Source: Cyanidioschyzon merolae
Lineage: Eukaryota
Length of the DNA: 64,000 bases
Assembly (NCBI GenBank): GCA_000091205.1
Contig: AP006502.2
Reading direction: 5' to 3' (one strand)
Numbering within the stretch: position 1 is the stretch's first letter; each line of letters begins with the position of its first letter. The position numbers and the translations under genes are program-made. The notes beneath the pieces were generated by a model, which was given only the letters and a program-made list of their open reading frames with translations, was not told where the DNA came from and did not search any database. Below are positions 8,120 to 40,471 of the stretch, piece by piece.

Positions 8120-10510
8120 ATGGGCAGGCAAGTAGTGGATTCGCGGAGCTTTGCGAGCCATGGCCGACAAAGGGCGATGCGCGCTTTCGCATCACCCAAG
8201 CGCGATCGGAAAAATGGGCGCTCATCAAAGCGAGTTCGCGTTGAGGCTGGAAGCCTGTCTGAGCAGCCTGGTGCTTCATTCGACGAAACGGACTGGATGA
8301 ACACGCGCTCTGCGGCGATCGAACGCGACACGCCTCGGTTCCAGTCCGGCAACGATTCGGATAGCGAACTCGACGGTTTGGGCAATCGTTCCGCGGGCCA
8401 TAATTCGAGGCGAATACTGAGCGGCAGTGTGTCGCCATACGACGTCTCTGCTAGCCCTGACGCGTCCTCTGCAAGCGAGCTTGAAGCGTCTCACGGAAGA
8501 GCGGCACGCGAGCGGCGCACTGCCGCCAACGACCGAGTCGACTCGAGTTATGGTGCCGACTTGATGGCTGATTTCAGTGCAAGCTCGCAGTCCTCTGATT
8601 CAGAGAATACTGAGCTGCTGGAAATGGAAGAGACTCGCGATAGCGATGCTTCCAGCGCTCTGGACAACGATGTCGAGGCCGATTACGAGAGCGCTTCGGA
8701 CCCGGGCCCAGAAGATGATACCGACGAAGACGAAGATGTACATGACGCTCTCTGGGACGAGAGGCCCGACGGACGGCGCCGGTCGTTGTACTACGACGCC
8801 GACACTGCTGTGCGTGAGGATCAACTGGATATCGATGAGCTGGACGAGGAGGAGGCGGAAGCGATGCGCCTCCAGCGACAACAACTTAGTCGCTTGCAGG
8901 CCCAGGACTTTACCGGCGGTATTGCAGTCTCTGAGCTCGCACGAGCCGTGGACGACACCGCACCGGGAGGCACGCCTCGGCCGTATGCCGCAGATGCAGC
9001 ATCGCTAGAGGCAACTGCTTCGGATCATGACCAGGTTGCAGTTCGAGAGGTGCTTCGATCGCTGTCGACGGCGCTCCAGGAGATCATTGAGGACCTGGAG
9101 CAGCTCTTGGAAACTGCAAAACGAGAACAATTAACAACGCACATGGAACGAGATCCGTTGCTGGGCCTCCTGGAGCTCAAGAGACAGCTGCTCCTCAACT
9201 ATGGAACGAATCTGGCTTTTTATCTTGCACTGAAAGCTGAATGCTCGTCGATCCGCGACCATCCTGTCATGGACCGTCTCATGGAGATAGGAGTCACACT
9301 GGACAAAATCCGTCCGCTGGAAGAACATGTTCGTGTACGCTTGGAGGCCCTGAAGCGAGCCGGTCAACAGCAATCGACATCAGCGTTGCGACCGGAGTTT
9401 GCACAAGGCAGCGAGTCTGATGACTCACTGCCAGCTTCAAACGGCACGAGCACAACCGATCAAACAGACGAAGGAGCGACTGGTCGATACAGGCCGCTCC
9501 TCACCACCGCAGAGACCTACGAAGACGAGCGCACGCGACGTCGACGCGAACAAGCCGTAGCGCGTGCTGACGCCGACCAGCGCCCGTACCGCTTTGAAGT
9601 TCGCCAGCTTGCACGCGAACTCAGCGACAAGCCCGAACAGGTAAGCCTGAACGCTGACCCCGAAGCAATGACTCGTGATGATATGCGGCTCGTGCGGCAG
9701 GCGGAGGCGCGCCAAGCATACGAGGAGGAACACCTTGTTCGTTTACCAGAGAGCAAAAAGGACCGACGAGCTCGCCGCCTTGCAGAAGCTACTCGCGGCC
9801 TGACCGCCATAGATTCGAAGACACGGACAAGTGGTATGACGGACCTGCTTTCCGTTGCGAATCGAATCGTCGAGGTGAGTCAGCGCGATCAGAGCCAAGT
9901 GCACGCGATGCCTCCAAAAGCGCTGCACGCTGAACGCACGTCACGGGCCGTCGACAGGCACCGCTCGGATGTGTCGTCCAGGCCCAGCACCGACTCGCAA
10001 GCAGCAGCAGCAGCAGCAGCAGCATCAAACCAGGTATCAGAAGCGTTCCTGCAACGTGCACAACATTCGACGTTTGACCAAAGCGCTACAGACAAGCGAG
10101 CAGCATTGAGTGCGTTCGAAGGTTCATCCGCGCCATCCGACTGGTCGTCGTTGCTCTACAAAGCAGCAGCGGATACGATGCAGCGCAAGCGTCAGAAGCG
10201 TACCCAGGGTAGCGCCGAAGCACTGGTCGCTTCACCGGATGACGACTTGCTGGCAGAGAATAGGCCACGACGAATAACGGATGAGATTCGAAGGAATCGC
10301 GGGTTAACAGCGCGCCGGCCTCGAAACGCTGCACATCGTAACCCGCGTGTGAAGCGACGGGTACGCTATGCAGAGGCCTTGGTTCGTCGCAAGGGTCAAG
10401 TGCGCGTCTATGATGATCGCACGCGCTCGGTTGCAGCTGCAGGCGCTTACAAGGGCGAAACAAGTGGTATCAACAAGCGCACGCGACAGAGTGTGGTTTT
10501 GCGGACGTAA
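8120..10510 (+). CDS. UTP3: Sas10/Utp3 (something-about-silencing 10), an SSU processome / U3 snoRNP protein
   Basis: Internal Sas10/Utp3/C1D domain (LELKRQLLLNYGTNLAFYLALKAEC..DHPVMDRLMEIGVTLDKIRPLEE). Characteristic Sas10 C-terminal domain (NRGLTARRPRNAAHRNPRVKRRVRYAEALVRRKGQVRVY). Long acidic D/E/S-rich N-terminus typical of the family. PolyA run from (GCA)8 at 10001..10024. Confidence 0.7.
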   Translation: MGRQVVDSRSFASHGRQRAMRAFASPKRDRKNGRSSKRVRVEAGSLSEQPGASFDETDWMNTRSAAIERDTPRFQSGNDSDSELDGLGNRSAGHNSRRILSGSVSPYDVSASPDASSASELEASHGRAARERRTAANDRVDSSYGADLMADFSASSQSSDSENTELLEMEETRDSDASSALDNDVEADYESASDPGPEDDTDEDEDVHDALWDERPDGRRRSLYYDADTAVREDQLDIDELDEEEAEAMRLQRQQLSRLQAQDFTGGIAVSELARAVDDTAPGGTPRPYAADAASLEATASDHDQVAVREVLRSLSTALQEIIEDLEQLLETAKREQLTTHMERDPLLGLLELKRQLLLNYGTNLAFYLALKAECSSIRDHPVMDRLMEIGVTLDKIRPLEEHVRVRLEALKRAGQQQSTSALRPEFAQGSESDDSLPASNGTSTTDQTDEGATGRYRPLLTTAETYEDERTRRRREQAVARADADQRPYRFEVRQLARELSDKPEQVSLNADPEAMTRDDMRLVRQAEARQAYEEEHLVRLPESKKDRRARRLAEATRGLTAIDSKTRTSGMTDLLSVANRIVEVSQRDQSQVHAMPPKALHAERTSRAVDRHRSDVSSRPSTDSQAAAAAAAASNQVSEAFLQRAQHSTFDQSATDKRAALSAFEGSSAPSDWSSLLYKAAADTMQRKRQKRTQGSAEALVASPDDDLLAENRPRRITDEIRRNRGLTARRPRNAAHRNPRVKRRVRYAEALVRRKGQVRVYDDRTRSVAAAGAYKGETSGINKRTRQSVVLRT

Positions 10511-10609: not shown

Positions 10610-12772
10610 CTAGTTCGTCGGGGGCGCTAGCGTGGCCTCCATCGCAGCCATAGTGGACGCGGTCGCTGGACTCTCCACCGGAGACGCGTCTTGTACATCA
10701 TGTGTGGATCGACTCGCATCCATCGCTCTGGTTGCGGATCCATTGAGTCGCGGGTGCCGCTGTTGGTCGCTACCGGCTGCGGCATGTTGTCCGTTCTGCA
10801 TTCCAGCGGTTTCGAGCGAGCTCGGTATCGGGGATGCGGCGGTAGCTGCGACTGGTGCTGCCCCCGCAGGTCGCAACCATCGCTGCTTCCATTCGAGCAT
10901 CTCCCGATACCATTCCTGGGCACGCGCGTAGTACTCGGGCCCTGCAGCTTGCGCTCGTCTCATGTAAGCGTCAATATCAAAGTGGAAGCTGTAACTTGGT
11001 GGTGTATTGGGCCGCGAACCGAATCCTTTCCAACCCGTTACCTGCTGTTGTGGTTGTTGCTGTTGTAGTTGCTGCTGCTGCTGCTGCTGCTGCACGTGAT
11101 CGAGCCACTCAAGCCATTGACTTGCGGCCTGCCCGCTCGAATGAATGTAGTTTGCAGGCGTGTTCGACGTCAGCGTATACGAAGATCCTAGTGCATGTGG
11201 CGACATGCCGTGAGCAGCATACAATTTCGCAGAGAAAGGCCCAGGCAGCGGACTCCATCCCCAGAGGGCGACATGCTCAGGGCTCGTGGGTCCACGGCTC
11301 GGCATATTCGATGGATACCCGCACGCTGCAGGTACCGCAGCGTCTGTCCGAGGCATGCCCTGAACCGCAGGCAGTGCGCCCGGGGACGGCGGTACTGATC
11401 GGTTTCCCAGTCCACGGACCGGTGAAGGAGGAACAGAGCTTGGTCGCGGGAAGAGCGGCCGCGGATTCAGAACAGACCGCGAAGCGGTGCTCGTCATTCC
11501 CCGTGGAGCACCTGGAGCCGCCGCCAGCCCAGGCCAAGCTGCACGATCCTCCTTGTTTTCTGTGAGCGCTGCATTTGCCGTGCGTGGTCGCTTCGGGCTG
11601 CTGATTTCTCGCAGTTCATGTCCATCGGGTACGCGCATTTCTTGAAACGACGGCATCACGGTGTTCACGTAAGCAGCAGGGTCTTCGGCGTTGGCCACCG
11701 CCAGCCAGGCGCCATCCGCCACAGAATCTGTCCCAGGAAGCGCACACGATGCGTAGCGTAGCGCTTCATTGGTAGAATGGAGTGAAGGCAATCGCTGCGT
11801 CGATCGTGCTATTGCAGCATCGGTCAGGCCCGCAGCTTGCAACTTGTCGGCAGAGGCCGGGCGCACTACTTGGTTCGAATACGGGTTCGGTAGCAACTCG
11901 CGTGGGGTGCGGAGCTCTTCCAGTCGCACGTTGTCCTCGCCGCACCAGACGAACGCTGGCTTCCGGTACTCCGTGTGCGTCTTCCGAATCAGCCCGAGCG
12001 AGGAAAGTATGTTTGCAATGTCATAGAGTCGTCGCACCTTGGTTTTCATGCCCCCATTTAGGGGATTTTCCTCCGCTTCGCGATTGCCGACACTCCCGGA
12101 TAACAAGATCGACGCTGCGTATTCCAGACTGATGGTGTCGCCACCTGCTAGCAGGAACAGTTGCACAAAACGCTGCGAGAGTGCGCCAAGTGATTTCTCC
12201 TTCCGCGACATGCGATGATTCTTCGTCGACGCGACGGATGGTTTGGATAATGCATTGGATGCAAGCAGGCTCTCTGGGCAGGTTGCGTAGCGTTCGACTT
12301 CGCTGGCTTTTGCTGTGGTCGACAAGGGCCCGCTGACCGGATCGTTGGCCAACTCGTCATCATCCCCATTGAGCTGACTCGAGTCTCCAAGGCCGGCAAC
12401 ACCTCCAGCGGATTCTGCCTCTTGTCTGAGGCGCTGGATGCTCTCTTTCAAACGACTTTGGCCTAGCCAAATATACTTGTTTTTGGCCTTTCGTGTCACC
12501 ATTCCGACGCTTTCGAGCACATTCACAATGTCATATATTCGTCTGCGCTCAACACCGAGGCGCGTCGCCGCTTCGTCCAGGCAAATTTCACATGAACTGT
12601 TTCCCCGTGCTTGTTCTAGAACGCCGTAAAGAGAAAGAAAATTCTCACAAAGCAAGCCGAGGGACTTGTCCTTGCGAGAGTATGCATCACCCGACACCAG
12701 CGGCTGCGAGCTTGATCGCGAGGTGCCCGGCTCACCGTAGCCCCTCATCGGTGACGCCCGATACGGGAACAT
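10610..12772 (-). CDS. Atypical E2F transcription factor (E2F7/E2F8/DEL-like) with two tandem E2F winged-helix DNA-binding domains
   Basis: DBD1 RKDKSLGLLCENFL..RRRIYDIVNVLESVGMVTRKAKNKYIWLG and DBD2 RKEKSLGALSQRFVQLFL..KVRRLYDIANILSSLGLIRKTHTEYRKPAFVWCG. No recognisable DP-dimerisation or marked-box region. C-terminal polyQ (QQQQQQQLQQQQPQQQ) from (CTG/TTG)n at 11045..11091. Confidence 0.8.
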   Translation of the reverse strand: MFPYRASPMRGYGEPGTSRSSSQPLVSGDAYSRKDKSLGLLCENFLSLYGVLEQARGNSSCEICLDEAATRLGVERRRIYDIVNVLESVGMVTRKAKNKYIWLGQSRLKESIQRLRQEAESAGGVAGLGDSSQLNGDDDELANDPVSGPLSTTAKASEVERYATCPESLLASNALSKPSVASTKNHRMSRKEKSLGALSQRFVQLFLLAGGDTISLEYAASILLSGSVGNREAEENPLNGGMKTKVRRLYDIANILSSLGLIRKTHTEYRKPAFVWCGEDNVRLEELRTPRELLPNPYSNQVVRPASADKLQAAGLTDAAIARSTQRLPSLHSTNEALRYASCALPGTDSVADGAWLAVANAEDPAAYVNTVMPSFQEMRVPDGHELREISSPKRPRTANAALTENKEDRAAWPGLAAAPGAPRGMTSTASRSVLNPRPLFPRPSSVPPSPVRGLGNRSVPPSPGALPAVQGMPRTDAAVPAACGYPSNMPSRGPTSPEHVALWGWSPLPGPFSAKLYAAHGMSPHALGSSYTLTSNTPANYIHSSGQAASQWLEWLDHVQQQQQQQQLQQQQPQQQVTGWKGFGSRPNTPPSYSFHFDIDAYMRRAQAAGPEYYARAQEWYREMLEWKQRWLRPAGAAPVAATAASPIPSSLETAGMQNGQHAAAGSDQQRHPRLNGSATRAMDASRSTHDVQDASPVESPATASTMAAMEATLAPPTN

Positions 12773-16286: not shown

Positions 16287-17981
16287 TCAAGCCTTGTGGA
16301 ATGTAGCAATAAACTCGGTGAGAATTTTTCGCAAGGCTTCATCGGACTCCTTCGATAATTGGCCTTCCTGACGGATCTTTGCCAACAGATCACCATGATT
16401 TGAGCGCATGTTCTGCAGCATTGCTGCTTCATACTCGCGAATACGAGAGACGGGTACCTTGTCGAGAAGGCCACGTACACCTCCGTAGATCACGCACACT
16501 TGTTCTTCGAACGGCATCGGTTTGTACTGGCCTTGTTTCAACAGCTCATTCAGACGGTCTCCGCGATTCAGCAACTGCTGCGTGGCGGCATCCAGGTCAG
16601 AGCCGAACTGCGCAAAGGCAGCGACCTCCCGATGCTGCGCTAATTCCAGTTTCATCGACCCCGCAACCTGCTTCATCGCTTTTGGTTGCGCCGCAGATCC
16701 CACTCGACTAACCGAAATACCAACGTTGATCGCGGGACGTTGACCCTTGTAGAACAACTCCGACTCCAAGAATATCTGCCCGTCCGTAATCGAGATCACA
16801 TTCGTCGGAATGTACGCGGACACGTCACCAGCTTGCGTCTCTATGATGGGAAGCGCGGTCAGGGATCCGGCGCCTGCTGTATCGCTCATTTTCGCAGCGC
16901 GTTCCAGCAGACGCGAATGCAGGTAGAAGACATCACCGGGATAGGCTTCGCGACCCGGCGGACGCCGCAGCAACAGTGACATCTGTCTGTACGCGACTGC
17001 CTGCTTACTCAAGTCGTCATAGATAATGAGCGCATGCATACCGTTATCCCGGAAGTATTCGCCCATTGCACAGCCGGAAAACGGGGCCAGAAACTGGAGA
17101 GGTGCCGCATCCGATGCCGTCGCCGCCACGATGCACGTGTATTTGAGTGCGTCAGCCTGCTCGAGTCGATTCACCAACTGCGCGATCGTACTGCGCTTTT
17201 GCCCGACTCCAACATAAATGCAGTAGATTTTTTCAGGCCTGTTCTCGTCATGGGCCTTCTTCTGATTCAAAATCGCATCGATGGCAACCGCAGTTTTGCC
17301 GGTCTGTCGATCACCGATAATGAGCTCTCGTTGGCCGCGCCCTATCGGCACAAGACTATCCACAGCTTTGAGACCTGTCAGCATAGGCTCATGCACAGAA
17401 CGACGCGGGATAATACCCGGAGCCTTGACATCAACCCGTCGCCGCTGAACAGCGCGGATCGGGCCCTTACCGTCGATCGGCTGCCCCAGAGCGTCCACAA
17501 CGCGACCAATGACGCCTTCCCCGACCGGAACGTCTACAATAGCTTCCGTCCGTTTTACGAGAGAGCCTTCGGTAATATCGCGGTCGGAGCCGAAAACGAC
17601 AACACCTACATTATCCTGCTCAAGGTTGAGCGCCATGCCTTTGGTGCCGTCCGCGAACTCCACCATTTCACCGGCTTTGACATTGTTCAATCCGTAAACT
17701 CGGGCAATACCGTCACCAATGGTTAGCACTCTCCCGACTTCGTTCACATCGAACGGCTCCTCAACGCCGCTGATTTTCTCTTCGAGAATCGCAGAGAGCT
17801 CTGCTGCTGAGAGCGCGGATCTGCGCACAGCACCCGTAGCCCGCCAGCTGGAGAGCGACCTCTGCCGCTGGTCGCGATTCGCTGTGACCCACAAGGCACC
17901 GTGTACAGCTGCACGACCGCGTACAAGCAGGTCACTGGAACGCACCAAAGCACGAGCAAACGGTCTCAGGGCACGGTTCAT
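16287..17981 (-). CDS. ATP1: F1 ATP synthase alpha subunit, nuclear-encoded mitochondrial precursor
   Basis: Full-length match to ATP synthase alpha: [181 protein letters not shown]. About 60 aa of Arg-rich N-terminal presequence precede the conserved core. Confidence 0.95.
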
Positions 17982-18443
17982 GGAGAGGCTTTTCGGCCAA
18001 AAGCACGTCGTTGTTGAAGAGGCGCGTTCGTTACGGTTCTATTGGCGAAGGAGCGCCATCGTCTCATACGGCGGCAGCGTGGTAAGGGAATTCCCTTACG
18101 ATCAGACGTCAACGGTGATACCAAGTTTGTCTATTATTGATCAGATTCTGTTGACATGGATGTACGGGGCAATCGCCTCTGTCCAGGAAGCGCATCGGTA
18201 ACTGCAGCAGGGCGCTCACTGGACACCAAAAAACGCATCGATAAACGTTTATGCTGCGTTCGTCGGAAGTCGTCATCGGGCGTGCCGACTTGGTGCTACT
18301 GTCTGTGGCGATGCGCATGCCTCGATGTAGACGCGCCAGCTGGTGAAGGTCGTGCGGGACGTTGCACTCGGAAGCTGGTACATGCTTGGACACTTTTTCT
18401 GGAAATCGAGAAGCTCCAGCGCTGACTCGACAAGCGCCTATTG

Positions 18444-18466
18444 GTGTGTGTGTGTGTGTGTGTGTG
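18444..18466. repeat. (GT)11-12 dinucleotide microsatellite in the divergent intergenic region between ATP1 and ispF
   Basis: Read directly. Followed at 18585-18630 by a long polypyrimidine tract (ctcctttccttcttttcgtttgtttcgttttttttc). Similar (GT)8 at 58240..58256 and (CA)8 at 45085..45101. Confidence 0.9.
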
Positions 18467-19285: not shown

Positions 19286-20446
19286 GTGTTGGCGTTCCTC
19301 GCACTGTTTTGTTTTCGATCTAGTAATCAGTTCTTGACCATGTTTCTGGCTCCGACAATACACTTCACGCACAGAAAACACCGCATTGGAACCCTCGGGA
19401 ACCGAGTAGTAGCTCGCTACCATCGACCGTGCACCAACGTTCCAAAACCGCGAGCCCGTGTTCCGTCTCTTCAACGCCGGCTCTCAGTTCAAGCGTCGGC
19501 TCTCAGAGTGGGCCACGGCTTTGATCTGCATCGCCTGGAACCTGGACTACCTCTGATTCTCGGTGGTGTGCGTCTCGAGCACGATCGTGGTTGCGCAGCG
19601 CACTCGGACGGCGACGCCGTCTACCACGCTGTTACGGACGCGATTTTGGGTGCCTTGGCACTGCCGGACATTGGCCAGCTTTTCCCGGACACCGACCCCC
19701 AATGGAAAGGGGCAACTTCGGATGTTTTTCTCCGGGCAGCCGGGGCTATGATGCTTCAACAGGGGTACCGCATCGCGAACCTCGACGTTACTGTCATTCT
19801 GGAACGGCCCAAGCTCGCCCCGCACAAAGAACAAATACGCCAGAATATAGCGGGACTTTTGGGGCTTAGTCTCGAACAAGTGAATTTGAAAGCAAAAACA
19901 CACGAAAAAGTAGATAGCATCGGGGAGAATCGCAGCGTCGGCTGTCACGCCATGATCCTACTCGAGCGTCAACCGCTCGGGAACAGTGACGAGCCTTCCA
20001 CGTCCGCATCCGAAAGCTTCGCATCATCAGCAAGCGGTGCTCCCAACGCTGCATCTCCTAATAGTCTGGAATCGGGTGTGTTTGCCGCACTCGCAGCGAC
20101 GCTCTCTCGAGTCCATGAAGTGATCGAGTCACGACGGTCAGCAGACCCGGAGAAATCATGGACAGCGAAGCTCTTCGCGAAAGGACGCCATAAAATCGCC
20201 CAGAAAGTCGGCGAGGAAGCGCTTGAAGTGGCACTAGATGCTGTGCAAAATCGACCTGATCGCGTCGTGGAAGAAAGCGCCGACCTGTTGTACCACCTTT
20301 TGGTACTGTGGGCGGATCTGGGAGTCCATCCCAACCAGATCGCAGCGGAGCTTGAAAAGCGACAAGGCAAAAGCGGTTTACGCGAAAAGCAGCATCGCAA
20401 TGAATACAAGGACACAAAGGAGCAGCATGATTTGGTGCAGCACTAA
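19286..20446 (+). CDS. ispF: Two-domain protein: IspF (2-C-methyl-D-erythritol 2,4-cyclodiphosphate synthase) joined to HisE (phosphoribosyl-ATP pyrophosphohydrolase), with a putative N-terminal transit peptide
   Basis: Residues ~80-235 match IspF: GHGFDLHRL..GGVRLEH..GCAAHSDGDAVYHAVTDAILGALALPDIGQLFPDTDPQWKGATSDVFLRAAG..ANLDVTVILERPKLAPH..VNLKAKTHEKVDSIGE. The C-terminal ~100 aa match HisE: SWTAKLFAKGRHKIAQKVGEEALEVALDA..VVEESADLLYHLLVLWADLGV..IAAELEKR. There is no stop codon and no internal Met between the two domains. Confidence 0.85.
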   Translation: MLAFLALFCFRSSNQFLTMFLAPTIHFTHRKHRIGTLGNRVVARYHRPCTNVPKPRARVPSLQRRLSVQASALRVGHGFDLHRLEPGLPLILGGVRLEHDRGCAAHSDGDAVYHAVTDAILGALALPDIGQLFPDTDPQWKGATSDVFLRAAGAMMLQQGYRIANLDVTVILERPKLAPHKEQIRQNIAGLLGLSLEQVNLKAKTHEKVDSIGENRSVGCHAMILLERQPLGNSDEPSTSASESFASSASGAPNAASPNSLESGVFAALAATLSRVHEVIESRRSADPEKSWTAKLFAKGRHKIAQKVGEEALEVALDAVQNRPDRVVEESADLLYHLLVLWADLGVHPNQIAAELEKRQGKSGLREKQHRNEYKDTKEQHDLVQH

Positions 20447-20709: not shown

Positions 20710-23700
20710 TCATGAACGAAAATAGACACCGAGTGGAAACGATACCGAAGCGTCGTATGCGTACAGGGCATCTGCCCAGCCACGGGGCACTGGTACAAAA
20801 CCTTGGAACAAGTGCGGCTGCCGACACCGTTGCCATGCGTTCGGTGTTGCAGATTCCCCGTAACCCGCTTGTTTGGCATCCGTCCGTCCTATAATCGATG
20901 CAGTGGTGTTGCAGCGCGAGTCTGGCGATGCCTTTGAGCGCTTTTGGACGCGCCAGGGTGCTTCCGGGCACTCCGCTTGTTCCCGGGGGCCGGACTGGTC
21001 TAGTCGGAGCTGGGGCAACCACCAGCGCTCCATCACGACAACTCGGGAGCAGGGCGAACGAGACCTGCAAAGCGCGACATACCACACTGTTTGGAGCCGG
21101 TCTGCAACGGCGTTCGCCACAACTGCGCTCGTCAACGGAATCGTGAGGAGCCGCCAGCCTCTGCTGGTACGTCTCGGAAGCATTTTCAAACGCAGAACAA
21201 GATCGTCGGCGGATGCCGGTACCCAACGCTGGATGAACCAGTAGACTCGCCGCCAGAAGCATCGCCAGCACCTGCTTTCCTTTGTGAGCGTCGCCTGCGC
21301 AGCGGTATCTGCTCGAACTGGATGCTGACGCTGCTTCAGGTTCAGCACACAGGGGCAACGGATTTGCGGCATGACCTGTTCCGGTGCCAGGGCAAGCACA
21401 TGCAGCTTGTCGTAGCCGGGAGGCATCAGCCACAACATGATCACGTCGCTCCACTGGAGCTCATCCAGGACCTGCCACGAGCAACTTGAGCGATTCACGG
21501 AAAACGGACCGTTTGTCGGTAGCCGCAAGTGCCAGAGACGCCGATTCGTGCACAACACAGCCTCGTTCGGCACTGGACGACAACAAAAGCGATACTGCTC
21601 CGACAAAAGTTCCGAGGAGCTCGCCTGATCGAGCATCTGCCACAGTTCGTATCCCAGCACTGCATCTTCGATGTCGTAGCTGTGATCCAGCTTTGTGCTG
21701 GGCATCCGCGGAGGTCTCAACGGAGCGCTCCATTCGGCAACGCTCCACGTCCATGCGGTCTCCCCAGCAGCCGATTCAATCAGATGCCACGCTGCTTGGT
21801 CTAACAGATCCCGAGCTATTGCCAGCACCGTAGCCGTTGCCTGCATCATGAACAGAAGCGGTGTCGCGAGGAGGATGCCCATTCGTTGGCCGGCCGCGGC
21901 ATGCCACCACCACCGCCACCGCCACCGCCGCCGAAGACGCTCCACCTTGGAGCTGCTGGCACGCTCGGCTGGTGACCCAGGCACCACTGCATCCGTTTTC
22001 GAGTACCGCTGCTGGTGCTGGTGCCCATGAGACGCACCTCCGGTACCTGAAACTTGAACGCGACGCTCAAGGAACCGTGCTGCCCCGCTGTTCGCGTCCG
22101 GGATGCTCCGGTTGTGTGCAGCGCCTGGCATGCGCGCTGCAATATCAAGGGCGAGCGTCGCCAGCCCTATATGTTGCCTGAGGGTTCCCGCTGCCAGCGC
22201 TATCATTCGATGGAATGCATCCAGGGAGGCTGCACCTAACCCCGCGCCATACCCCAGCGACAACGCTGCCGCTGCTCCTAAGATACGGTGCCGATGGCGC
22301 TGACGCAACAACGCTCCGAGTTGTCTCGCTATCTGACGAACAAGTCGACTTAAATGGCGCGCATATCGTGCCGGATTCCCTAACCATTCCGCAGAACTGA
22401 TGACTTTCCAAACCTCCCGGTTCAGTTGTTGTTGATAATGGCGCACCAGGTGCTGCACCAGGTCGTCGCTTGTCTCAAAGGTACCGTCGAGGACGAGTTC
22501 GCGTAGCCACAGCGATGCATCCTGAACATTCATGAGCGGTGTAAGCATGAGTGCTGTCAAACGGGGCCACTCGCTTCCGCGGTATTGCAGGAGCGTTCCC
22601 AGGCTCACCAGGTCGGTTCGTACCGATAGAGTGCATGCCAGCGGAGCGCATACAACGTCGTGAAAAGCGAGTCGCAGGGAGCGTTCAGAACGCTGCTGCA
22701 CCTGGGACACACTGGGAACACCTCGTAGCAGCGCCTGCTCCAGGGCGCGTCTCAAAAGCTGACAAGCGTCAGCGCCAGCCCGGTACTGGGCAGCGGAGCT
22801 ACCGAGCGCTTCATTCGCACCAGCGTCATATTGACAGCAACTGCAGTCGCTCTCCCTGCGCGCTGTGCACTGCGTCAACGATTCCCGTAATGAACGCGAC
22901 AACGGCATTGACGATAGCGATGATCGTGACGACGACGTATCCCCAGAGCGACATGTCCAGCAATACCTCGATGCCGGTGCATTGCCGTCACGCAATATCC
23001 GAGCCGCTGCTCCAGCTCGCCTCGAACTGGAGCTCCTTGCCCGCGCTTGCGTCAGTCGCTGAGCACTTGTTGCTGCAACGAGGCCCATGCTTGGTGTCCA
23101 GAAGATCTCCAGCTCTTGATCCTGCTGCTCAGCACCAACAGACGCCATTCGCAATGCATCAGCAGACGTTTCAACGGGGGTCATGGCATCGACTTGTCGC
23201 CGCCAAGCCACGAACCAGTCAACCATTTGAACAACCAGCGATGCATCGATGTCGAGATCGAGTCGTCCACACCGCACCTGTCCCGAGTGGATCCGTAGAA
23301 ACGTATGCGCACCAGTGCTACTAGACTCGAAACGGGTTCGCAGTACACAAGCAGCTTGCTTCGGGGCTCGCCAAGCGCCATCGTCGCTCGTCCACCGCCT
23401 CGAGGCAACCGATGCTGATAACGATGACGCTCCAGGCGCTGACGCTGACCCCTGACAAGCATACGAAACGGGCCTGCGACGGAGCGAGAACCACGAGACA
23501 ACCGCCAGCCGATCTAGCTGCCGGCTCGTGTTGTGATCTGGACGTATCGACGACTTCTTCTTCTTCTTCTTCTTCGAGTGCCGTTCGTGATCCGAAGCGA
23601 GGCTCAGTGCTCGGCTTGTGCGCGAGGCAGCGTCATTCGCTGCGACACTGTGCAGCCTCAGCGGTACACACCAGGCACCTGGTAATGTAGGATGCTGCAG

Positions 23701-26700
23701 AGCCGAACTGTGATCGAGTTGCAGTGCCTCGCAGACAAAAGCGACCTCACCATGGTAGCTCTCATCCAAACTGGCCTTTTGACGCAGCATATCGCTTCCA
23801 TCTTGGGTGCGTTTGACGTGATGCCAACGCGCATCCACGCCTCGTATGCCGAGGTAGACGACTTGTTCGAAAAGTGGCGGCTCTCTTGTCGTTGTCGTCA
23901 TCCGCAGCAGGGAAATGCCCATCTCGGGTACGCAGAGCTCACATGTGAACGCAGAGGCGTGGCGATCGATACCAGCACCAGCGTAGTGCATTGTCGTACT
24001 GGCTGGAAGCGCGTCCAGCGGTGTTTCAGACGGCGAGGTTTCTGTCGAAACATCATGTCGCTCGTCTACAGAGCGCTGCAGCGACGTTGACGCACCACGG
24101 CTTTGACTCGAGCGTCGAGGCACTGCAGGCTGTTCCTGTTGTTGCTCGTTTTCGGCGATGATGAGCGCAAGCGTTGCCTGGCATCGCTGCAGGCGAATCT
24201 GGAACGTGCGGCTTCGAGACGCTGCACCCGGAGCGCCCGCGGAGTTCGCTACACACCAGCGAACACTTTGATTACAGACCAAGTGCACCGCTGTCTGCGA
24301 GGCAACGTGCACGCGACGACGGCGATGACGACGACGACGACAACCGAGCCCCACTAGTTGCCAGAGACGAGTCCGGCATTGTTGCAGACGCGGAATCACG
24401 CGCAGTTGGACCGCTTGTCCCGTTCGTTTTCCGTCATGATATCCCCGGTGCCTGCTACGCCCGTTGGTGCGGTCGCCGCTGACACCGCTGTCGGTTGCAA
24501 CCTGTGTTTCTCCATGTACAGCTGCAACTGAAGCATGCGAATGCAGCTCGGGCTCTAAGCGAAAAGCGCCCACGTATCCAATCCCGTCGATCCAGAGCTC
24601 GAGAATCGGCTCTGCAAGCGGCTCATCCCAGGTGTAGGCGCATTCCGAGAGCGGGTCCAGTGCTTGCAGCGCATCGTCATCGATAACGTCCTGGGTCTGC
24701 TTCATGCAGCAGCCGCTTCGACAGTGCGCCGGTTCAAGGCGTTGAGCGAAACGAATGCGTTCAATCGTCTGATTCCGGATCCGATACGGTACCAGCAACG
24801 GATGCGGCGGCAGAATCGTTACCAGATGCACGGGTGTCACTGGACTGGTACCTGCTGCAGTGTGCACCCGCGGAAACTGACAAGCGCCCGTTGAGGCCTG
24901 GCGAAGACGCAGACACCAGTCGCTACCAGCGGTGACGGGAACACGTCCACTCCAGTACCAGCCGGGAGCAGCAATGCGGATGCGAAGGCATGGCTTGTTC
25001 GTACCAGCTGGCCAGTGCAACGTTGCCATGGCACCAGGCTCGAGGCGAAAGACGCTCCCGTCAGCGAGCAGTCTGTCGATATCGTTGGCGGCTGTTGGCC
25101 GGACGTCGACAAGGTCCAGGTCGCTGCCGGGGCTGTGCGTTCCTGCCCGGGGATTTGCGGCCCCGAATGATAAGCATTCATCGCCGGTATCCTGGTCGAC
25201 AGGCCATACCAGGAGCGTGTAGGCCGGCCACAAGTTCACCAGGCGGTATCGCGGGTACACCACGAGCAGCCGCGAACGCTCGAGCGGATACCCCAGCGGT
25301 TGGACGCAGACGACCGCATCCAACTGACGAGGACGCGGTACATACGCACCGTCGAACGTTGTCGGTGTCGATGAAGACGACGACGGCCAAGTTTCTGCCA
25401 CCGCTGCGGCAGGTGACCAAGCGCTAAAGCGTGGAGCGATAGAACGCGACACTTGAGACAAGCGCGAATGCGGTGTTGTCGCTGCTGCTGCTGCTGGTGC
25501 TGCGGCTAATGATGATGATACAAGCCACGGCCAACGAGCGTCTGTTTCAAGTGGTGTCGATACGCTCGCGTGTCTTGATCGCACTAGTCGCAACGGACTA
25601 GTTTTCACTTCAGGAGTACCAGTAGCAGCAACATGAACAACAGCATCCGCTACCGTCACCGCAGCTTGTGTGGGTGCTCGATCGGCACCGTGTGCAGATG
25701 CAAGGCGTTGCCAGGCGCTAGGCTGCTGCAGCACCGCCGCCGGAGACGCGAGCATCGCACGAGTCCATCTGTGCGGCTTACGCTCACCTGCAACTGCATA
25801 GAGAGAAATCACCAGGGCCTCATGCGCAAGTCTGGTGCCTGCACACCACGCACTCCATTCGGTATGTGCAGTGCGCCACGAGAGTGCGAGCTCTGGAAGC
25901 GACCATGCAGTCCAGGGACACGGGGCGAGTGTGAGCGGCAGCACTTGTCCGCAAACGGGGCCGCCGTTGTGTCCACCACCACGTGCTTGATACGGTAACC
26001 GCCCATAACGAGCGTTCTCGAATGCATCAAAAGCACCAGTCGTATGAGCAGATATTGGACGCGGCGGTGCGCACTCGCGACATGTCAAGGGCATGGAGCT
26101 GCTGCTACTGCTGCTGCTGCTGCTGCTGCAGGGATAGGCAACGCTTTGGATGGGCGTTTGCGGTGCAGCTGTTGCCGTAGCCTGCTCTGCTTGCACAGTC
26201 TCGAGGTCAGACTGGACACCAGGGCGTCCCGTGTCGATCCAGTTTGCCAAATGTCGTCGCAGTTGCGAGCACCAGGAGCGCCTCTCTGCAGGGATTGCCT
26301 GCATCAAGGTCGTCGGCGACGCTGTCCACAGTGAGCACCACAGTTCCGGAACGCACAGGGTTATCTGCCGCAAAGCACGTGGGTGCTCCCATCCAAAGTC
26401 GACTGCAAAACACGTCCCCAGTGGTGACATTGTTTCCGCGGGCTTCCAAGGCCACGGTGCCAGCCACCTGGGCGCATCGTAGACTACCCGTCGACGATAA
26501 TCATCGCACTCGTGTTCGATCGCATCCGCATGAATGGTTGCTGCTTCTGCTGCTGCTGCTTCTGCTGCTTCTGCTGCTGCTGCTGCTGCGTTCGGCTCGT
26601 TTGCTGTTCGATGAGGTGATCGATCCCGAATCGCTAATGACCTGCACACCTGGGAGGAAAGCGCAAGTGCACCACGATCGGATGCTACCACTGCCTCAGT

Positions 26701-29700
26701 CTGAGAGGTTACAAGTTCATCCAGCCAAGGATGAATCGGGAACAAGTCAGTCGACGCTGTGGTAGGCAGCTGAATCCAGACACGTCCAGGCAACAAGAAT
26801 GCCGATGAATCGGATGCTGCTGTTGACGTTGACTTTGACTGGTGTCCTCGATATCGAGGCAGATGCCGCTGGTGGCTGGTGGCGGCTTTTGGGCGTCGCT
26901 GCTGACGCCAGCCTGCCACCTCCTGGACGGTAGCTCGACGAGCGCCTGGCACACCAGCACGGGTGCAGTCTTTCGCGTTGGCATTGGCGGCAGCGGCGGT
27001 ACTGTCGACTTGGAGCTCCTCCAGCAGCGCCATAGGAGGCGGCTCGAACGCCTCCGGCAACGCCAGCGATACCCAGTGTGCTGGTTGCCAGCAGCAGCTC
27101 GTGGGGATGCTCGTATCCTCAGCGCTGTCCGAGGCATTCCGGGCAGGGTGCTGGTGCTGGTGCTGGTGCTGGTGCTGGTCGTGAAGATTCGTTTCGCTTT
27201 CGGGAGCGCCACCTAGTGTCGCTCTTGTTGCCAAACGCTTCCTCGAGGGATCCGTTGGTGCACTTGGTGCTCCAGTCGTTGACGCTACTGCTTTTGCTGC
27301 GGATAGCGCACACTCGAGATCAAACAGTGCATCCATCCGACAGCTGCGATACACTTGACCAGGCCAGAGCAGTGTCGCTCGATCCACGAAAACAGGTTCG
27401 ATCGATGCATTCCGTATTTGCCAGGGTGCATGGAGCGTCACCAACACAAGAGGCACGCTCACCGCCTCGTTACTCGTTGGTACACGACGAATGACCTGGG
27501 CAGTGAGCAGCGCACCCCAGATGGGGTCCGGCTCCGGATTCAGGTGCCTCGCAGAGCGCGTTCGCGGACGACGACTCGGTATCGGAGACGGTGCCAATGG
27601 ACCCAACCAGAGCACTCGGGATTCGTCGTCGCGAACATTCTGGGCAAGGTCCACGAACCAGGACCACAAGTACGAGGCAGGATGCACACTCGCAACTGCA
27701 GATGCATTGCTGACGCCGTGTTCACCGGTTCGGCACACATTCGGAGCAGTCACTTGGGGGCAGGCATCGTGTTCACTGCATTGCACTTGTCGTGGTTGTT
27801 GCGCTTCACACCCGAGCATGGACGGTGCAGGTAACCTGGTGCTGCTTGCATCCACGTCTGGTACCATCGCGTCATCGTCCAGTTCCGTGCAGAGCTGCCA
27901 GACACAGGGTGTTGGTGCAAACAACGAGGCTGCTCGGATATTGGTACGCGAAGCGAAACTCGATGCTCCATTCTGGACGGCTGTTGGATTCGCAGTCGCT
28001 TCGAAACGAGCTATACAGCACGGAGTGTTACGCACGTTCGAAGTGGTGTCATGCGTCCACAGTGACAAGCAGAGTGGCGTCTGATTCTCCCAGTACAGGG
28101 GCGACTCGAAGCGGCAGAGCCACTGGGGATCTGGTGTTGCTGCTGTTTGACCAGTGGCTGTTACCTTTTCAGAAACAACGCTTTTGCGTCGATACAGAAC
28201 AACCACCAGCACCAAACAGGGCCACTGCAAGGCTTGTATCGCCACGAGCTCGAGCGCAGCGTCAGGCGCGACCCAGCTGAGGGCCTCGCTTCGCGATACA
28301 CCTCCAGAGCGATTATCCAATGGTGCATCCAATGATGATGATGATGATGATGATGTCAGAAACCGTCGCCACTCGGAGAGACGCAGCACCTGCGGATTCT
28401 GGTCCAAAGCGTGAACCGCAATGTCTTGATAGAACGATGCTCGGGGAACGTATCGCATCTCGTCGACAGCGAGCGTACCGTACGCGCTCAGGTGCAGCGG
28501 CAAGCCACTAGCATTGACAAGAGCGAGCGTACCACACTGAGGGCGAACTGGTACCACCAGTGCGGCGCGCTCTGGCCTGCCTGCCTGTATTTGCAGCGTT
28601 CGCTCCACAGCAGCAGCGATTCGAGGCGTAATGTTCAAGCACAAGGCGTCGGTGCTGCTCAGGCGCAGCAGTGTCTGGCGGGCGGGCAGCGTAGACGCCT
28701 CGTGTGACCCACAACAGGCATCAGCAGCAATGCCGTTGCTGTTGTCGTTGTCGTTGTCGTTGTCGTTGTTCACAGCAGCTGTCTGTCGTTCTAGTTGCTG
28801 CAATTGCAGTTGCAATCGTGCCGGCTCCAGAACGAGCTCATCAGTGAGGAACGCTCGGCAGGAGCCCTGCACCTGGAGCCAAAGCGCTGTCCATGGAATG
28901 ACATGTTGCAGGACGCGAACTGAGAGGTTATCGATTTGCAGCGACCACTGCAAGCTGCTTGTCGCGTATGCACCAGCGCTAGCACCAGCACCAGCACCAG
29001 CATCGACAGGAATAGAAACAGCTGCTCCGGCAACGTGCATGGTAAGGGTAACAAGGCGGCCGTCGACTTGATACCATCGAGGCTCACTGAGCGCGCAGGG
29101 TGCTTCATCTGACGTCGATAACGACGACAAAGAAGACGATGATGATCCAGAGGAGAACGAGTTGCGGTGCTGGCCGACTGAGGATGATGCACGACGACGC
29201 CACCAATCGTTGTTCCAGTGTATATCCAGTGTCGACCAAGAGAGGCGCTTCTCAACATGCGGATACGCACAGTTTCGAACTAGGCACTGTTGCAGATGAA
29301 GCGCACAGCCACGCAGCCACAACGCGGAAGCCGCGAGTCCCCCAGCTGGAGTCGACAGAGGCCTCGAATCCGCAGCGCGAACATCAAACGCTGAGAAGCG
29401 ATCATCATCATCATCATCATCATCATCATCTGTGCCGTTTTTGTCTGCTTGACTCGATAAAGCGCTGATCGAGTCGTGCTGCCCTGTGCTTGCATCTCGA
29501 TACCTCGTCTGGCAATGGTAGTGCCGGTGATTCATCGGGGGTATTTGCGGCCTGCTTCGCCAGCGTCCCTGCTCATCGATGTAGCTCGCTAGACTGGAAG
29601 CCGTTGCTACCAGTGAGGCCACCACGAGATCACGCGGATACGCCTGTTCGTAGCCGGGGACGCGGTACCACTTGGGACGATCCCAGAATACAGCCTTACC

Positions 29701-39007: not shown

Positions 39008-40471
39008 ATGTTTCTGTGGTTTAGTGCTCCCTTATTTACAAGAAGCAATACGGGCACGCGGTGGATACCTGTAGGCAAACACCCGCTCGCCTGGGAACAG
39101 GCACGAGTGTGGCGTTGTCTTCACGAGCCGGCTGTGTTGGCGCTCCGCGGCCAGGACGCTGCCGCAATGTCGAAGAAACGAGTCAGCAGCGCTTCGATGG
39201 AGCCGTTCAACGTTGAATCGCTCGTCCGGGACGAACTTCAGCGTATGGAACCCTACGCGCCGATCCTACCGTACGAAGTACTCGCGCGACAGCTCGGACG
39301 CGATCCGAGTGAAATCATCAAACTGGACGCGAACGAGAATCCTTATGGCGTTTGTCCCGCCGTGCGAAACGCAGTGGCGGCTGCACCTTTCCCGCATATT
39401 TACCCGGATCCCGAGTCACGAGAGCTGCGCGAGGCGCTGGCGGCGTTCACGGGCGTACCTGCCTCGCGACTCCTTGTGGGCCACGGTGCCGACGAGCTCA
39501 TTGACCTTATTTTTCGACTCGTGATCCGAGCGAATCATCAGGATACTGTAGTGAACGCTCCACCTACGTTCGGTATGTACCAGTTCGATGCGGACTTGAA
39601 CGCAGCCAAAGTGGTTTCGGTATGGCGAAAAGCTGACGATGGCTTTCGCTTCCCAACCGAGCAGGTGGAGGCGTACTTTGCAGAAATCGCTGCTGCACGA
39701 GAGCGAGGCGTAGACCAGTCCTACCCCAGGATTGTCTTCGTGACTTGCCCCAACAACCCCGATGGCTCCCGAATATCGGATAGCGATCTGCGACGACTTT
39801 TACGCCTACCAACCCTGGTGGTGCTCGACGAAGCCTATATTGAGTTTGCGGATAGCGAGGAGGAGCGTTACCCAGATGCATCGGGCGGCAGCGAGACGCG
39901 TGCAACGGTTACAGAGCCACCCACACGGATTCGCTGGGTTCTTGAATACCAGAATCTCATCGTTTTACGAACGTTTTCCAAATGGGCCGCCCTAGCCGGC
40001 CTGCGGGTAGGTTATGGTGCTTTCCCGGAAGCGCTTCTGCCGCATCTCTGGAAAATCAAACAGCCCTACAACGTCAATGTGGCTGGGCAGGTTGCCGCCC
40101 TGGAAGCGCTATGTCAACGAGATCTCCTGTTCCAGCAAGTTTCATGGATGAAAGCGGAACGCCAACGCCTTTACCAAATCCTTCAGGCACCGCAGTTCGC
40201 GTGGTTGCATCCATACCCATCACAGAGCAACTTTGTGCTCTGTCGAGTGCGTTCTGATGATGCGCTCTGTAATGGATCCCGAAGAAAGGTTGCCTCTGCC
40301 CGGGCCCTGCGTGATTTTCTGCGAGATCGCGGTATTCTCATTCGTTACTATGATTCGAAAGGTCTGACAGACTGTATACGAATTTCCATGGGGACACCCG
40401 CCCAGATGGATCGCCTCTACGAGGTGTTGGAAGCGTACGCTCGTGTTCTCGGATATGGAAATGAAAGATAA
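39008..40471 (+). CDS. hisC: Histidinol-phosphate aminotransferase (HisC / HPA), a PLP-dependent class-II aminotransferase with an N-terminal extension (likely organellar targeting)
   Basis: IKLDANENPYG..FPHIYPDPESRELREALA..LLVGHGADELIDLIFR..LVVLDEAYIEFAD..NLIVLRTFSKWAALAGLRVGYGAFPE (PLP-binding Lys in the SK motif). Overall length and order are typical of HisC. Confidence 0.9.
   Translation: MFLWFSAPLFTRSNTGTRWIPVGKHPLAWEQARVWRCLHEPAVLALRGQDAAAMSKKRVSSASMEPFNVESLVRDELQRMEPYAPILPYEVLARQLGRDPSEIIKLDANENPYGVCPAVRNAVAAAPFPHIYPDPESRELREALAAFTGVPASRLLVGHGADELIDLIFRLVIRANHQDTVVNAPPTFGMYQFDADLNAAKVVSVWRKADDGFRFPTEQVEAYFAEIAAARERGVDQSYPRIVFVTCPNNPDGSRISDSDLRRLLRLPTLVVLDEAYIEFADSEEERYPDASGGSETRATVTEPPTRIRWVLEYQNLIVLRTFSKWAALAGLRVGYGAFPEALLPHLWKIKQPYNVNVAGQVAALEALCQRDLLFQQVSWMKAERQRLYQILQAPQFAWLHPYPSQSNFVLCRVRSDDALCNGSRRKVASARALRDFLRDRGILIRYYDSKGLTDCIRISMGTPAQMDRLYEVLEAYARVLGYGNER

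Follow-up and report, generated by a model that had tools for sequence, protein, structure and literature searches.

IspF carries out the fifth step of the MEP pathway (CDP-ME-2P -> MEcPP + CMP) and assembles as a trimer. HisE, a dimeric member of the all-alpha NTP-PPase superfamily, carries out the second step of histidine synthesis (PR-ATP -> PR-AMP + PPi). The two reactions have no substrate or product in common; nucleotide binding and a need for divalent metals are features of both enzymes. Each enzyme is known as part of a fusion. IspDF is a hexamer built of trimeric IspF and a dimeric partner; IspD, the partner there, is another MEP-pathway enzyme, and IspF is the C-terminal half of the chain (PDB 1w55, 8xhu; NF006899). 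In HisIE, plant HISN2 and fungal HIS4, HisE is joined to HisI, which acts one step later in the pathway, and in HIS4 also to HisD. The order HisI-HisE is invariable in HisIE-type fusions, and in 2007 the bifunctional hisIE was stated to be present in all eukaryotes (PMC1963479).

In a window of 64,000 nucleotides from the red alga Cyanidioschyzon merolae, a single ORF encodes IspF followed by HisE. As in IspDF, IspF is chained to a second enzyme, and the IspF halves of the two proteins are homologous (E 1e-31 to 4e-32). In the red algal protein, however, IspF is N-terminal and its partner comes from an unrelated pathway. The IspDF model NF006899 gave 190.3 bits against a cut-off of 417, with the match confined to positions 221-379 (the IspF half), and no IspD domain was found in Pfam. 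With HisIE, HISN2 and HIS4 the protein shares a homologous PRA-PH domain and its metal-binding Glu motifs, but it has no HisI domain: PF01502 had no match in the fusion protein, and the HisIE model NF002747 reached 93.7 bits against a cut-off of 187 at positions 115-206 (the HisE half). Plant HISN2 (7bgm, E 2.6e-8) is far less similar to the fused HisE than standalone bacterial HisE is. Red algae may be an exception to the all-eukaryote hisIE rule, and if they are without HisIE the published generalisation (PMC1963479) would be contradicted.

Each half also has a single-domain counterpart. Standalone HisE of the alphaproteobacterial type (Caenispirillum, Defluviicoccus, Telmatospirillum; about 105-115 aa) is 57-67% identical over the full domain to the fused HisE of C. 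merolae, is up to 72% identical to that of other red algae and passes NF001613, but it is a free protein with neither a targeting sequence nor a partner. In the green lineage (plants and algae; PDB 2pmp), plastid IspF is 55-72% identical to the IspF half and likewise has an N-terminal extension. Unlike the fusion, green-lineage IspF stops after the IspF domain (PF02542 only, about 205-300 aa).

A paper describing an IspF-HisE fusion was not found in literature searches on the fusion, the domain pair, red algal IspF and Cyanidioschyzon histidine synthesis. The fusion goes unmentioned in papers on MEP-pathway evolution that cover red algae (PMC7912892, PMC5164836) and in papers on HISN2 and his fusions (PMC8102479, PMC1963479). 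An earlier note on this DNA had not recognised the architecture from any described lineage. It is, however, already in public databases under IspF-only names and is common to the red algal classes sampled.

The reading frame and its domains

The frame is uninterrupted over 19286..20446 on the + strand and comprises 386 codons if counted, as in the ORF listing, from a GTG. The true start is most likely the first ATG (Table 1), and the in-frame GTG upstream, at 19286, a product of the bacterial ORF rule. The GTG start implied by the earlier count of 386 codons was set aside because the ATG yields a product that matches the deposited C. merolae 10D protein end to end (BAM83373.1 / XP_005539409.1 / UniRef100_M1VMN6; 100% identity, 368/368 residues). 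In the databases BAM83373.1 / XP_005539409.1 is named as MEcPP synthase only, and its HisE half is unlabelled.

Table 1. Features of the fusion gene, with positions in the window and residues of the 368-aa protein
Feature	Position	Strand	Details
CDS of the IspF-HisE fusion	19340..20446	+	368 aa + TAA stop (20444-20446); first ATG 19340
N-terminal extension, presumed plastid transit peptide	19340..19501	+	residues 1-54
IspF domain (candidate MEcPP synthase)	19502..19969	+	residues 55-210; PF02542 5.8e-60
Low-confidence Ser/Ala/Thr-rich linker	19970..20059	+	residues 211-240; pLDDT 48-64
HisE domain (candidate phosphoribosyl-ATP pyrophosphohydrolase)	20060..20401	+	residues 241-354; PF01503 1.1e-20
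Short charged C-terminal tail	20402..20443	+	residues 355-368; Cyanidioschyzon/Cyanidiococcus group

Pfam searches of the 386-codon ORF placed YgbB/IspF at residues 73-226 (E 5.8e-60, profile positions 1-154 of 155) and PRA-PH/HisE at residues 274-359 (E 1.1e-20, profile positions 2-85 of 86); these numbers refer to the GTG-started ORF, and those in Table 1 (55-210, 241-354) to the 368-aa protein. The earlier note had described one frame holding both IspF and HisE, and the ORF indeed has no stop between the two complete domains. Every IspF and HisE motif quoted there was found in it. The absence of a methionine between the domains was also borne out, as none occurs past the 'HAMILLER' strand of IspF. 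GC and GC3 are alike in the two halves and agree with those of the neighbouring genes.

The N-terminal half matches IspF models over their full length and well above their cut-offs (TIGR00151: 197.6 bits vs 116.45, profile positions 1-154 of 155; PF02542 on the fusion protein: 202.6 bits vs 26.7). Its top PDB match is 2pmp (5e-69). In an alignment of 51 fusion sequences D62, H64, H96, H88-S89-D90, D110-I111-G112 and E189 are invariant, so that the Zn-ligand, HSDGD and DIG residues of IspF are all present. D62, H64 and H96 presumably correspond to the Zn ligands D8, H10 and H42 of E. coli IspF. The domain is modelled by AF2 mostly at pLDDT above 90, and its mean pairwise identity among red algal fusions is 70%. 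The half is a candidate MEcPP synthase.

In the C-terminal half three HisE models passed their curated equivalog cut-offs: NF001613 (133.1 bits, cut-off 120), NF001611 (111.2, cut-off 99) and TIGR03188 (102.3, cut-off 42.7). PF01503 gave 74.2 bits on the fusion protein against a cut-off of 21.3. The half aligns with the HisE structures 2a7w, 1yvw and 1yxb and with the HisIE structure 6j2l, and its acidic metal-binding motifs, EExxE and ExxD..YH, line up with those of 2a7w, 6j2l and 1yvw. The residues E292, E293, E296, E312, D315, Y318 and H319 are invariant in the 51 fusion sequences. The AF2 model of the domain is all-helical with pLDDT above 90, and mean pairwise identity among red algal fusions is 63%. 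By these profile and motif matches the half is HisE, a candidate PR-ATP pyrophosphohydrolase.

The AF2 model as a whole consists of two confident domains with a low-confidence linker between them. Its pTM of 0.55 alongside the high per-domain pLDDT suggests that there is no fixed geometry between IspF and HisE. The linker had been put at about 45 residues, but in the model the low-confidence stretch is about 30 residues long (211-240) and the first HisE helix begins at residue 241. Across 51 red algal sequences the interdomain length ranges from 28 to 94 residues (24-86 when taken as phmmer domain gaps), with a mean pairwise linker identity of 16%. The C-terminal tail, modelled at pLDDT of about 74-77, is missing in most other red algal sequences of the alignment.

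The N-terminal extension is modelled with low confidence (pLDDT 39-54) and is poorly conserved, with a mean pairwise identity of 17% in the alignment of red algal fusions. It starts with MFLAPT, placing a Phe at position 2, and its 54 residues include 11 K+R but lack D and E. The distinct full-length extensions of the fusions contain 13.8% K+R, 2.5% D+E and 20% S+T, and a Phe lies within residues 2-7 in 29 of the 43 distinct orthologue extensions. Plastid targeting in rhodophytes uses a Phe-based motif at the N-terminus (PMC7038456), and the extension shows the features of rhodophyte plastid precursors: an N-terminal Phe or aromatic residue and a basic, hydroxylated and acid-poor composition. 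The fusion protein is therefore predicted to be plastid-targeted by a Phe-type transit peptide. The earlier suggestion of a transit peptide is in keeping with this, as MFLAPT fits the Phe-based motif (PMC7038456), but its proposed length of about 75 residues has to be reduced to 54. A presence of hisH in Cyanidiales plastid genomes was considered as an argument for plastid histidine synthesis and dropped, since hisH is listed as exclusive to glaucophyte plastid genomes (PMC6330054).

Distribution in red algae and relatives of the HisE half

The five red algal classes that were sampled all have the fusion, and so does each named red alga that was retrieved: Cyanidioschyzon, Cyanidiococcus, Cyanidium, Galdieria (3 species), Porphyridium, Rhodosorus, Purpureofilum, Bangiopsis, Pyropia (2 species), Chondrus, Gracilaria and Agarophyton. 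It is carried by about 80 distinct protein clusters, which come from independent genomes and from transcript assemblies (MMETSP and one TSA record) in which it is called as a complete ORF. The domain order IspF-linker-HisE is constant in 98 sequences. Matches from green plants and algae listed in the same search have IspF only. The suggestion that this is a lineage-specific fusion in a plastid-bearing eukaryote thus agrees with the same architecture recurring across the red algal classes sampled. The fusion could be a synapomorphy of Rhodophyta.

When 1.84 billion (1.84e9) representative proteins were scanned with HMMER, the best 150 matches (at least 147 bits) included only two with both domains, one from Galdieria partita and one, P0043, whose representative is closest to florideophyte sequences. 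Some fusion matches of about 310 aa, like the Agarophyton model of 310 aa, begin a short way ahead of the IspF domain. These look like shortened gene calls from a Met just 5' of the mature domain. A bacterial origin of such matches on long contigs was considered and rejected, as one of the loci (P0008) has Pex19, RING-finger and spermine synthase genes. A two-stretch match of the HMMER scan that could have been a reversed fusion (P0320) was found to be a bacterial tandem HisE-HisE. A search with the HisE half alone, limited to 8000 candidates, listed neither the query protein nor any fusion, perhaps because short standalone HisE filled the limit; the range of the fusion is therefore taken from the HMMER scan and from the search that also listed green-lineage IspF.

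Among the matches listed, standalone bacterial HisE shares 57-67% identity with the HisE domain of C. merolae, and for red algal HisE domains of all classes the best identity to this standalone set is 56-72%. Almost all named members of the set are Alphaproteobacteria/Rhodospirillales. Identity of red algal HisE to the PDB HisE of beta- and gammaproteobacteria, Bacillus and Streptomyces is 29-58%. In the two close bacterial relatives that were checked (64-66% identity), hisE is the terminal gene of the his cluster and lies beside hisF, in the orders hisB-hisH-hisA-hisF-hisE and hisH-hisA-hisF-hisE. The similarity ranking, made with a small outgroup set, points to an alphaproteobacterial-type affinity of the HisE half.

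Origin of the fusion and alternative explanations

The reading that we hold to be fairly probable is that the protein is a plastid-targeted bifunctional enzyme whose two active sites are independent, and that the fusion had a single origin, by targeting hitch-hiking, in the red algal stem. One nuclear-encoded polypeptide would be imported into the plastid, where IspF and HisE, joined by a flexible linker of variable length, would fold and act independently. In this single event an alphaproteobacterial-type standalone hisE would have been attached 3' to the ispF gene already present, and HisE would in this way have gained the ispF promoter and the Phe-type transit peptide. As a historical account this hitch-hiking is plausible, and the fusion may illustrate how a foreign gene gains organelle targeting behind a resident targeted gene. 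It would have been retained because a separated HisE would have to acquire a promoter and a transit peptide afresh. Since the two reactions share no metabolite, the tie between the domains would be co-localisation and co-expression and not substrate channelling. With a trimeric IspF and a dimeric HisE, at least a hexamer would be expected, in which two IspF trimers are bridged by three HisE dimers, as in IspDF. Such a naturally fused trimer-dimer pair is of structural interest for the geometry of its assembly. The chemistry of IspF and HisE as understood is unchanged by it.

The retention of the fusion for more than 1 billion years in all classes could also reflect a functional advantage of the physical link. 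The trimer-by-dimer assembly might cross-regulate plastid isoprenoid and histidine/nucleotide metabolism, or the HisE-like domain might hydrolyse an MEP-relevant nucleotide instead of or besides PR-ATP. Such a role would fit the strict retention in all red algal classes, the gene-poor Cyanidiophyceae included, the constant order of the domains in the 98 sequences, and the nucleotide binding and divalent metal need that the two enzymes have in common. We nevertheless consider it unlikely: the reactions have no common substrate or product, the unconserved linker varies 3-fold in length, and the pTM of 0.55 beside confident domains suggests no set interdomain geometry. In addition, neofunctionalisation is argued against by the HisE domain scoring above the equivalog cut-offs and sharing 60-70% identity with HisE from bacterial operons. 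Low probability is likewise given to the broader proposal that red algae are the sole eukaryotic group in which HisE was uncoupled from HisI and replaced by an alphaproteobacterial-type HisE on IspF, in a functional complex that couples or co-regulates plastid isoprenoid and histidine/nucleotide metabolism. If the functional-complex reading is true, Rhodophyta would have in the fusion a clean marker of the rare-genomic-change type, which would also serve to trace red-algal genes in secondary-plastid lineages.

The protein could also be a polyprotein that is imported as one chain and cut in the linker within the stroma, releasing free IspF and free HisE. The linker is exposed, of low complexity and modelled with low confidence, and cutting it would remove the symmetry mismatch between trimer and dimer. 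However, a conserved cleavage motif is absent from the linker, which is only 16% identical between species, and stable trimer-dimer fusions such as IspDF (PDB 1w55, 8xhu) are known. Cleavage is therefore a doubtful explanation, to be ranked with the functional link.

Much less probable is a house-cleaning role for the C-terminal domain as a generic MazG-like NTP pyrophosphatase, the alternative against which the earlier note had set its HisE assignment. HisE does sit in the all-alpha NTP-PPase superfamily, and PF12643 (MazG-like) had a weak match on the fusion protein. This match, at 20 bits (E 8.5e-4), is under the gathering threshold of 27, as against 74 bits for PRA-PH and three HisE equivalog models passed. 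The two close relatives of the HisE half that were checked are moreover encoded in his operons, and the assignment to HisE was upheld.

That two genes were merged by a frameshift, a lost stop or another assembly, annotation or sequencing error, a caveat of the earlier note, is effectively refuted, as no supporting evidence was found, the sequence matches the finished C. merolae 10D reference exactly, and the same single-ORF architecture is repeated in about 80 clusters from many genera, in independent genomes as well as transcripts.

Annotation and a hisC-like neighbour

Red algal proteins named '2-C-methyl-D-erythritol 2,4-cyclodiphosphate synthase' or 'hypothetical protein' also hold a complete HisE domain. 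Because the fusions carry only such names, name-based pathway reconstruction of red algae would result in a false gap at EC 3.6.1.31. An ancient and conserved fusion of enzymes from unrelated pathways is also a warning against 'Rosetta-stone' functional inference.

A HisC gene had been reported 19 kb downstream of the fusion. The ORF at 39008..40471, 18.6 kb downstream, does have hisC as its best profile, but its score of 268.7 bits falls slightly short of the 276.55 set as cut-off for the bacterial equivalog, and the linkage is irrelevant: unrelated eukaryotic genes lie between the two loci, and an operon-like meaning of their proximity was therefore rejected. The hisC-like gene starts with MFLWFSAPLF and has an extension of about 70 residues, which fits Phe-based plastid targeting.

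Gene structure and domain identity

The reading frame is uninterrupted for 386 codons from a GTG, and in this reading Pfam detects two complete domains, YgbB/IspF (residues 73-226, E 5.8e-60) and PRA-PH/HisE (residues 274-359, E 1.1e-20). The single two-domain ORF described in the earlier note is therefore confirmed, but its length was an artefact of counting GTG as the start. The 368-aa product from the first ATG is identical at 368/368 residues to the C. merolae 10D protein BAM83373.1 / XP_005539409.1 / UniRef100_M1VMN6, deposited solely as "2C-methyl-D-erythritol 2,4-cyclodiphosphate synthase"; it is used for residue numbers below. NCBIfam agrees with Pfam: curated cut-offs were exceeded by the ispF model TIGR00151 (197.6 bits, cut-off 116.45) and the HisE models NF001613 (133.1, cut-off 120), NF001611 (111.2, cut-off 99) and TIGR03188 (102.3, cut-off 42.7). 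Two of the closest bacterial relatives of the HisE half end his clusters (hisB-hisH-hisA-hisF-hisE and hisH-hisA-hisF-hisE), so the assignment is also backed by orthology. GC and GC3 are similar between the two halves and in line with neighbouring genes.

In an alignment of 51 red algal fusion proteins (A1), mean pairwise identity is 70% in the IspF domain (residues 55-210), 63% in the HisE domain (241-354), 17% in the N-terminal extension (1-54) and 16% in the linker (211-240), which varies from 28 to 94 residues. Invariant IspF columns include D62, H64, H96, H88-S89-D90 and E189; D62, H64 and H96 presumably correspond to the Zn ligands D8, H10 and H42 of E. coli IspF. Those of HisE include E292-E293-x-x-E296, E312-x-x-D315 and Y318-H319, and the acidic motifs align with those of solved HisE and HisIE structures. 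AlphaFold2 predicts two confident domains (pLDDT mostly >90 at residues 55-210 and 241-345), whereas confidence is low at residues 1-50 and 211-240. The pTM is a modest 0.55, in keeping with domains that are not fixed relative to each other. In C. merolae there is no Met between the domains, and HisE can therefore be made solely as part of the fusion, as first proposed, barring non-AUG initiation. A linker Met is present in 36/51 orthologues in A1, at no conserved position.

Distribution and origin of the fusion

Among the matches listed from 5.8 billion protein clusters, PF02542 and PF01503 occur together in 79, and with cluster members included, IspF is followed by HisE in 98 sequences, which answers the earlier call to look for the fusion in related genomes. 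All named carriers among these matches are red algae of five classes: Cyanidiophyceae (Cyanidioschyzon, Cyanidiococcus, Cyanidium, Galdieria), Porphyridiophyceae (Porphyridium), Stylonematophyceae (Rhodosorus, Purpureofilum, Bangiopsis), Bangiophyceae (Pyropia) and Florideophyceae (Chondrus, Gracilaria, Agarophyton). Some carriers are transcript assemblies (MMETSP, TSA record GFKZ01006435) called as complete ORFs, and one mRNA therefore encodes both domains. In the green plant and green algal matches listed IspF stands alone and the HisE half was not found. Fusion matches of ~310 aa on long contigs are eukaryotic; a bacterial source was rejected because one locus adjoins Pex19, a RING-finger gene and spermine synthase.

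When 1.84 billion representatives clustered at 50% identity were scanned exhaustively with HMMER, only two fusions were among the best 150 matches (>=147 bits), one from Galdieria partita and one, the database protein P0043, closest to florideophyte sequences. Since a fusion at even ~40% identity per half should have entered these best 150, the architecture appears to be confined to Rhodophyta. A single origin in the common ancestor of Rhodophyta would explain this most parsimoniously. A third two-stretch match, P0320, is not a fusion: this apparently bacterial 218-aa protein carries two HisE domains in tandem. Its second copy has partly lost the acidic motif (ESADLLYH→ASDGLLFH), suggesting a pseudo-dimer in which one of the two sites has degenerated.

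For the IspF half, the closest sequences are the plastid IspF proteins of green plants and algae, at 55-72% identity among the matches listed; its best PDB match is 2pmp (5e-69). Searched alone, the HisE half matched only standalone proteins of ~105-115 aa (56-67% identity among the matches listed), in a listing that holds no fusion proteins, not even the query's own, and whose silence on fusions is uninformative. The named matches listed are nearly all Alphaproteobacteria, mainly Rhodospirillales (e.g. Caenispirillum, Azospirillaceae, Defluviicoccus, Telmatospirillum), plus one Solirubrobacterales MAG. HisE domains of every red algal class reach a best identity of 56-72% to this standalone alphaproteobacterial-type set and 29-58% to PDB HisE of beta- and gammaproteobacteria, Bacillus and Streptomyces. 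The match to plant HISN2 is far weaker (E 2.6e-8). By similarity ranking rather than by tree, the HisE half has an alphaproteobacterial affinity.

The fusion is a real, ancient and clade-defining joining of unrelated pathways. In IspDF the domain order is reversed and IspF is joined to an enzyme of its own pathway, whereas the red algal partner belongs to an unrelated one; the structures 1w55 and 8xhu are among the PDB matches, but NF006899 does not place the C. merolae protein in IspDF. In HisIE / HISN2 / HIS4 the partner of HisE is HisI, not IspF, in the invariable order HisI-HisE (PMC1963479), and NF002747 does not place the protein there either. Red algae may be an exception to the 2007 generalisation that all eukaryotes have a bifunctional hisIE (PMC1963479). 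The earlier impression of an unrecognised architecture holds for the literature searched on the fusion and on the MEP and histidine pathways, where no description was found, but the domain pair is already visible in public databases: the sequences are public and both Pfam domains are precomputed in the searched collection, under names reading IspF or "hypothetical" only. The fusion affects the annotation of red algal proteins and reveals no new chemistry.

Targeting and probable mode of action

Plastid import in rhodophytes and glaucophytes involves a Phe-based motif at the extreme N-terminus (PMC7038456). The fusion protein begins MFLAPT, its extension contains 11 Lys+Arg and no acidic residues, and Phe occurs within residues 2-7 in 29/43 distinct full-length orthologue extensions. 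From these features we infer import into the plastid; the putative transit peptide suspected earlier is a basic, Phe-type extension of 54 rather than ~75 residues. The hisC-like product of the window has a similar Phe-type N-terminus (MFLWFSAPLF, extension ~70 residues), which suggests that at least one further histidine-pathway enzyme of C. merolae is plastid-targeted.

On balance we favour a bifunctional plastid enzyme, at least hexameric, whose domains act independently and whose fusion was kept for historical reasons. The IspF domain would convert CDP-ME-2P to MEcPP and CMP, and the HisE domain would hydrolyse PR-ATP to PR-AMP and PPi. The most economical reason is a historical one: by fusing behind a resident plastid-targeted gene, a bacterial-type hisE would have obtained both its expression and its transit peptide at once, and the two would have to be reinvented for the fusion to be undone. 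IspF is a trimer and HisE a dimer, so the fusion is predicted to assemble as a hexamer or larger, like the hexameric IspDF. Substrate channelling is unlikely because the two reactions have no metabolite in common and the long tether is variable and not conserved. Functional coupling of the enzymes through the assembly is improbable, and stromal cleavage into two separate enzymes equally so. A generic MazG role of the C-terminal domain, named earlier as a reading that would undo HisE, is very improbable: the MazG-like model PF12643 scored 20 bits (cut-off 27) and three HisE models passed. An assembly or sequencing artefact is practically dismissed by the five classes and the transcript assemblies.

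Neighbourhood of the fusion gene

Features in the window
Feature	Coordinates	Strand	Remarks
Sas10/Utp3	8120..10510	+	housekeeping, uninterrupted ORF
E2F/DP transcription factor	10610..12772	-	housekeeping, uninterrupted ORF
F1-type ATP synthase alpha/beta-family subunit	16287..17981	-	N-terminal extension; uninterrupted ORF
(CA/TG)n dinucleotide microsatellite	~18380..18450	both strands read	~0.9 kb upstream of fusion gene
ORF from GTG	19286..20446	+	386 codons, uninterrupted
IspF-HisE CDS	19340..20446	+	first ATG, 368 aa
4706-aa ORF	20710..34830	-	convergent with fusion gene, stop codons 264 bp apart
hisC-like class I/II aminotransferase	39008..40471	+	TIGR01141 268.7 bits, cut-off 276.55
CofD / 2-phospho-L-lactate transferase family	43089..45023	-	644 aa; PF01933, 8.4e-51
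RING-finger protein	48241..49542	+	uninterrupted ORF

Genes in this eukaryotic window are densely packed, with long ORFs and no sign of introns; its housekeeping genes, the ATP synthase-family and RING-finger genes among them, are single ORFs and fit the intron-poor C. merolae genome. The HisC gene reported downstream does have hisC as its best model, slightly below the cut-off, but its proximity is not evidence of linkage since unrelated genes intervene and the host is a eukaryote.

The 4706-aa ORF abounds in tracts of low complexity (poly-D, HQ repeats, poly-K, poly-S). Its sole Pfam match, to the VPS13 adaptor-binding domain, is borderline (22.2 bits, cut-off 22.6), and residues 1-943 had no match at E<=1e-4. 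The product is probably a lipid-transfer protein of the VPS13 type that has diverged strongly. The CofD family is unusual for a eukaryotic alga; the match spans 361 residues against 264 profile positions, and the protein therefore has large insertions. The microsatellite appears as THTHTHT and VCVCVCV in ORF translations of both strands.

Another unusual IspF architecture was met in the ENA proteins P0083 and P0094 (~292 aa), in which PF05635 (23S rRNA-intervening-sequence protein family) accompanies an IspF domain ~69% identical to that of red algae.
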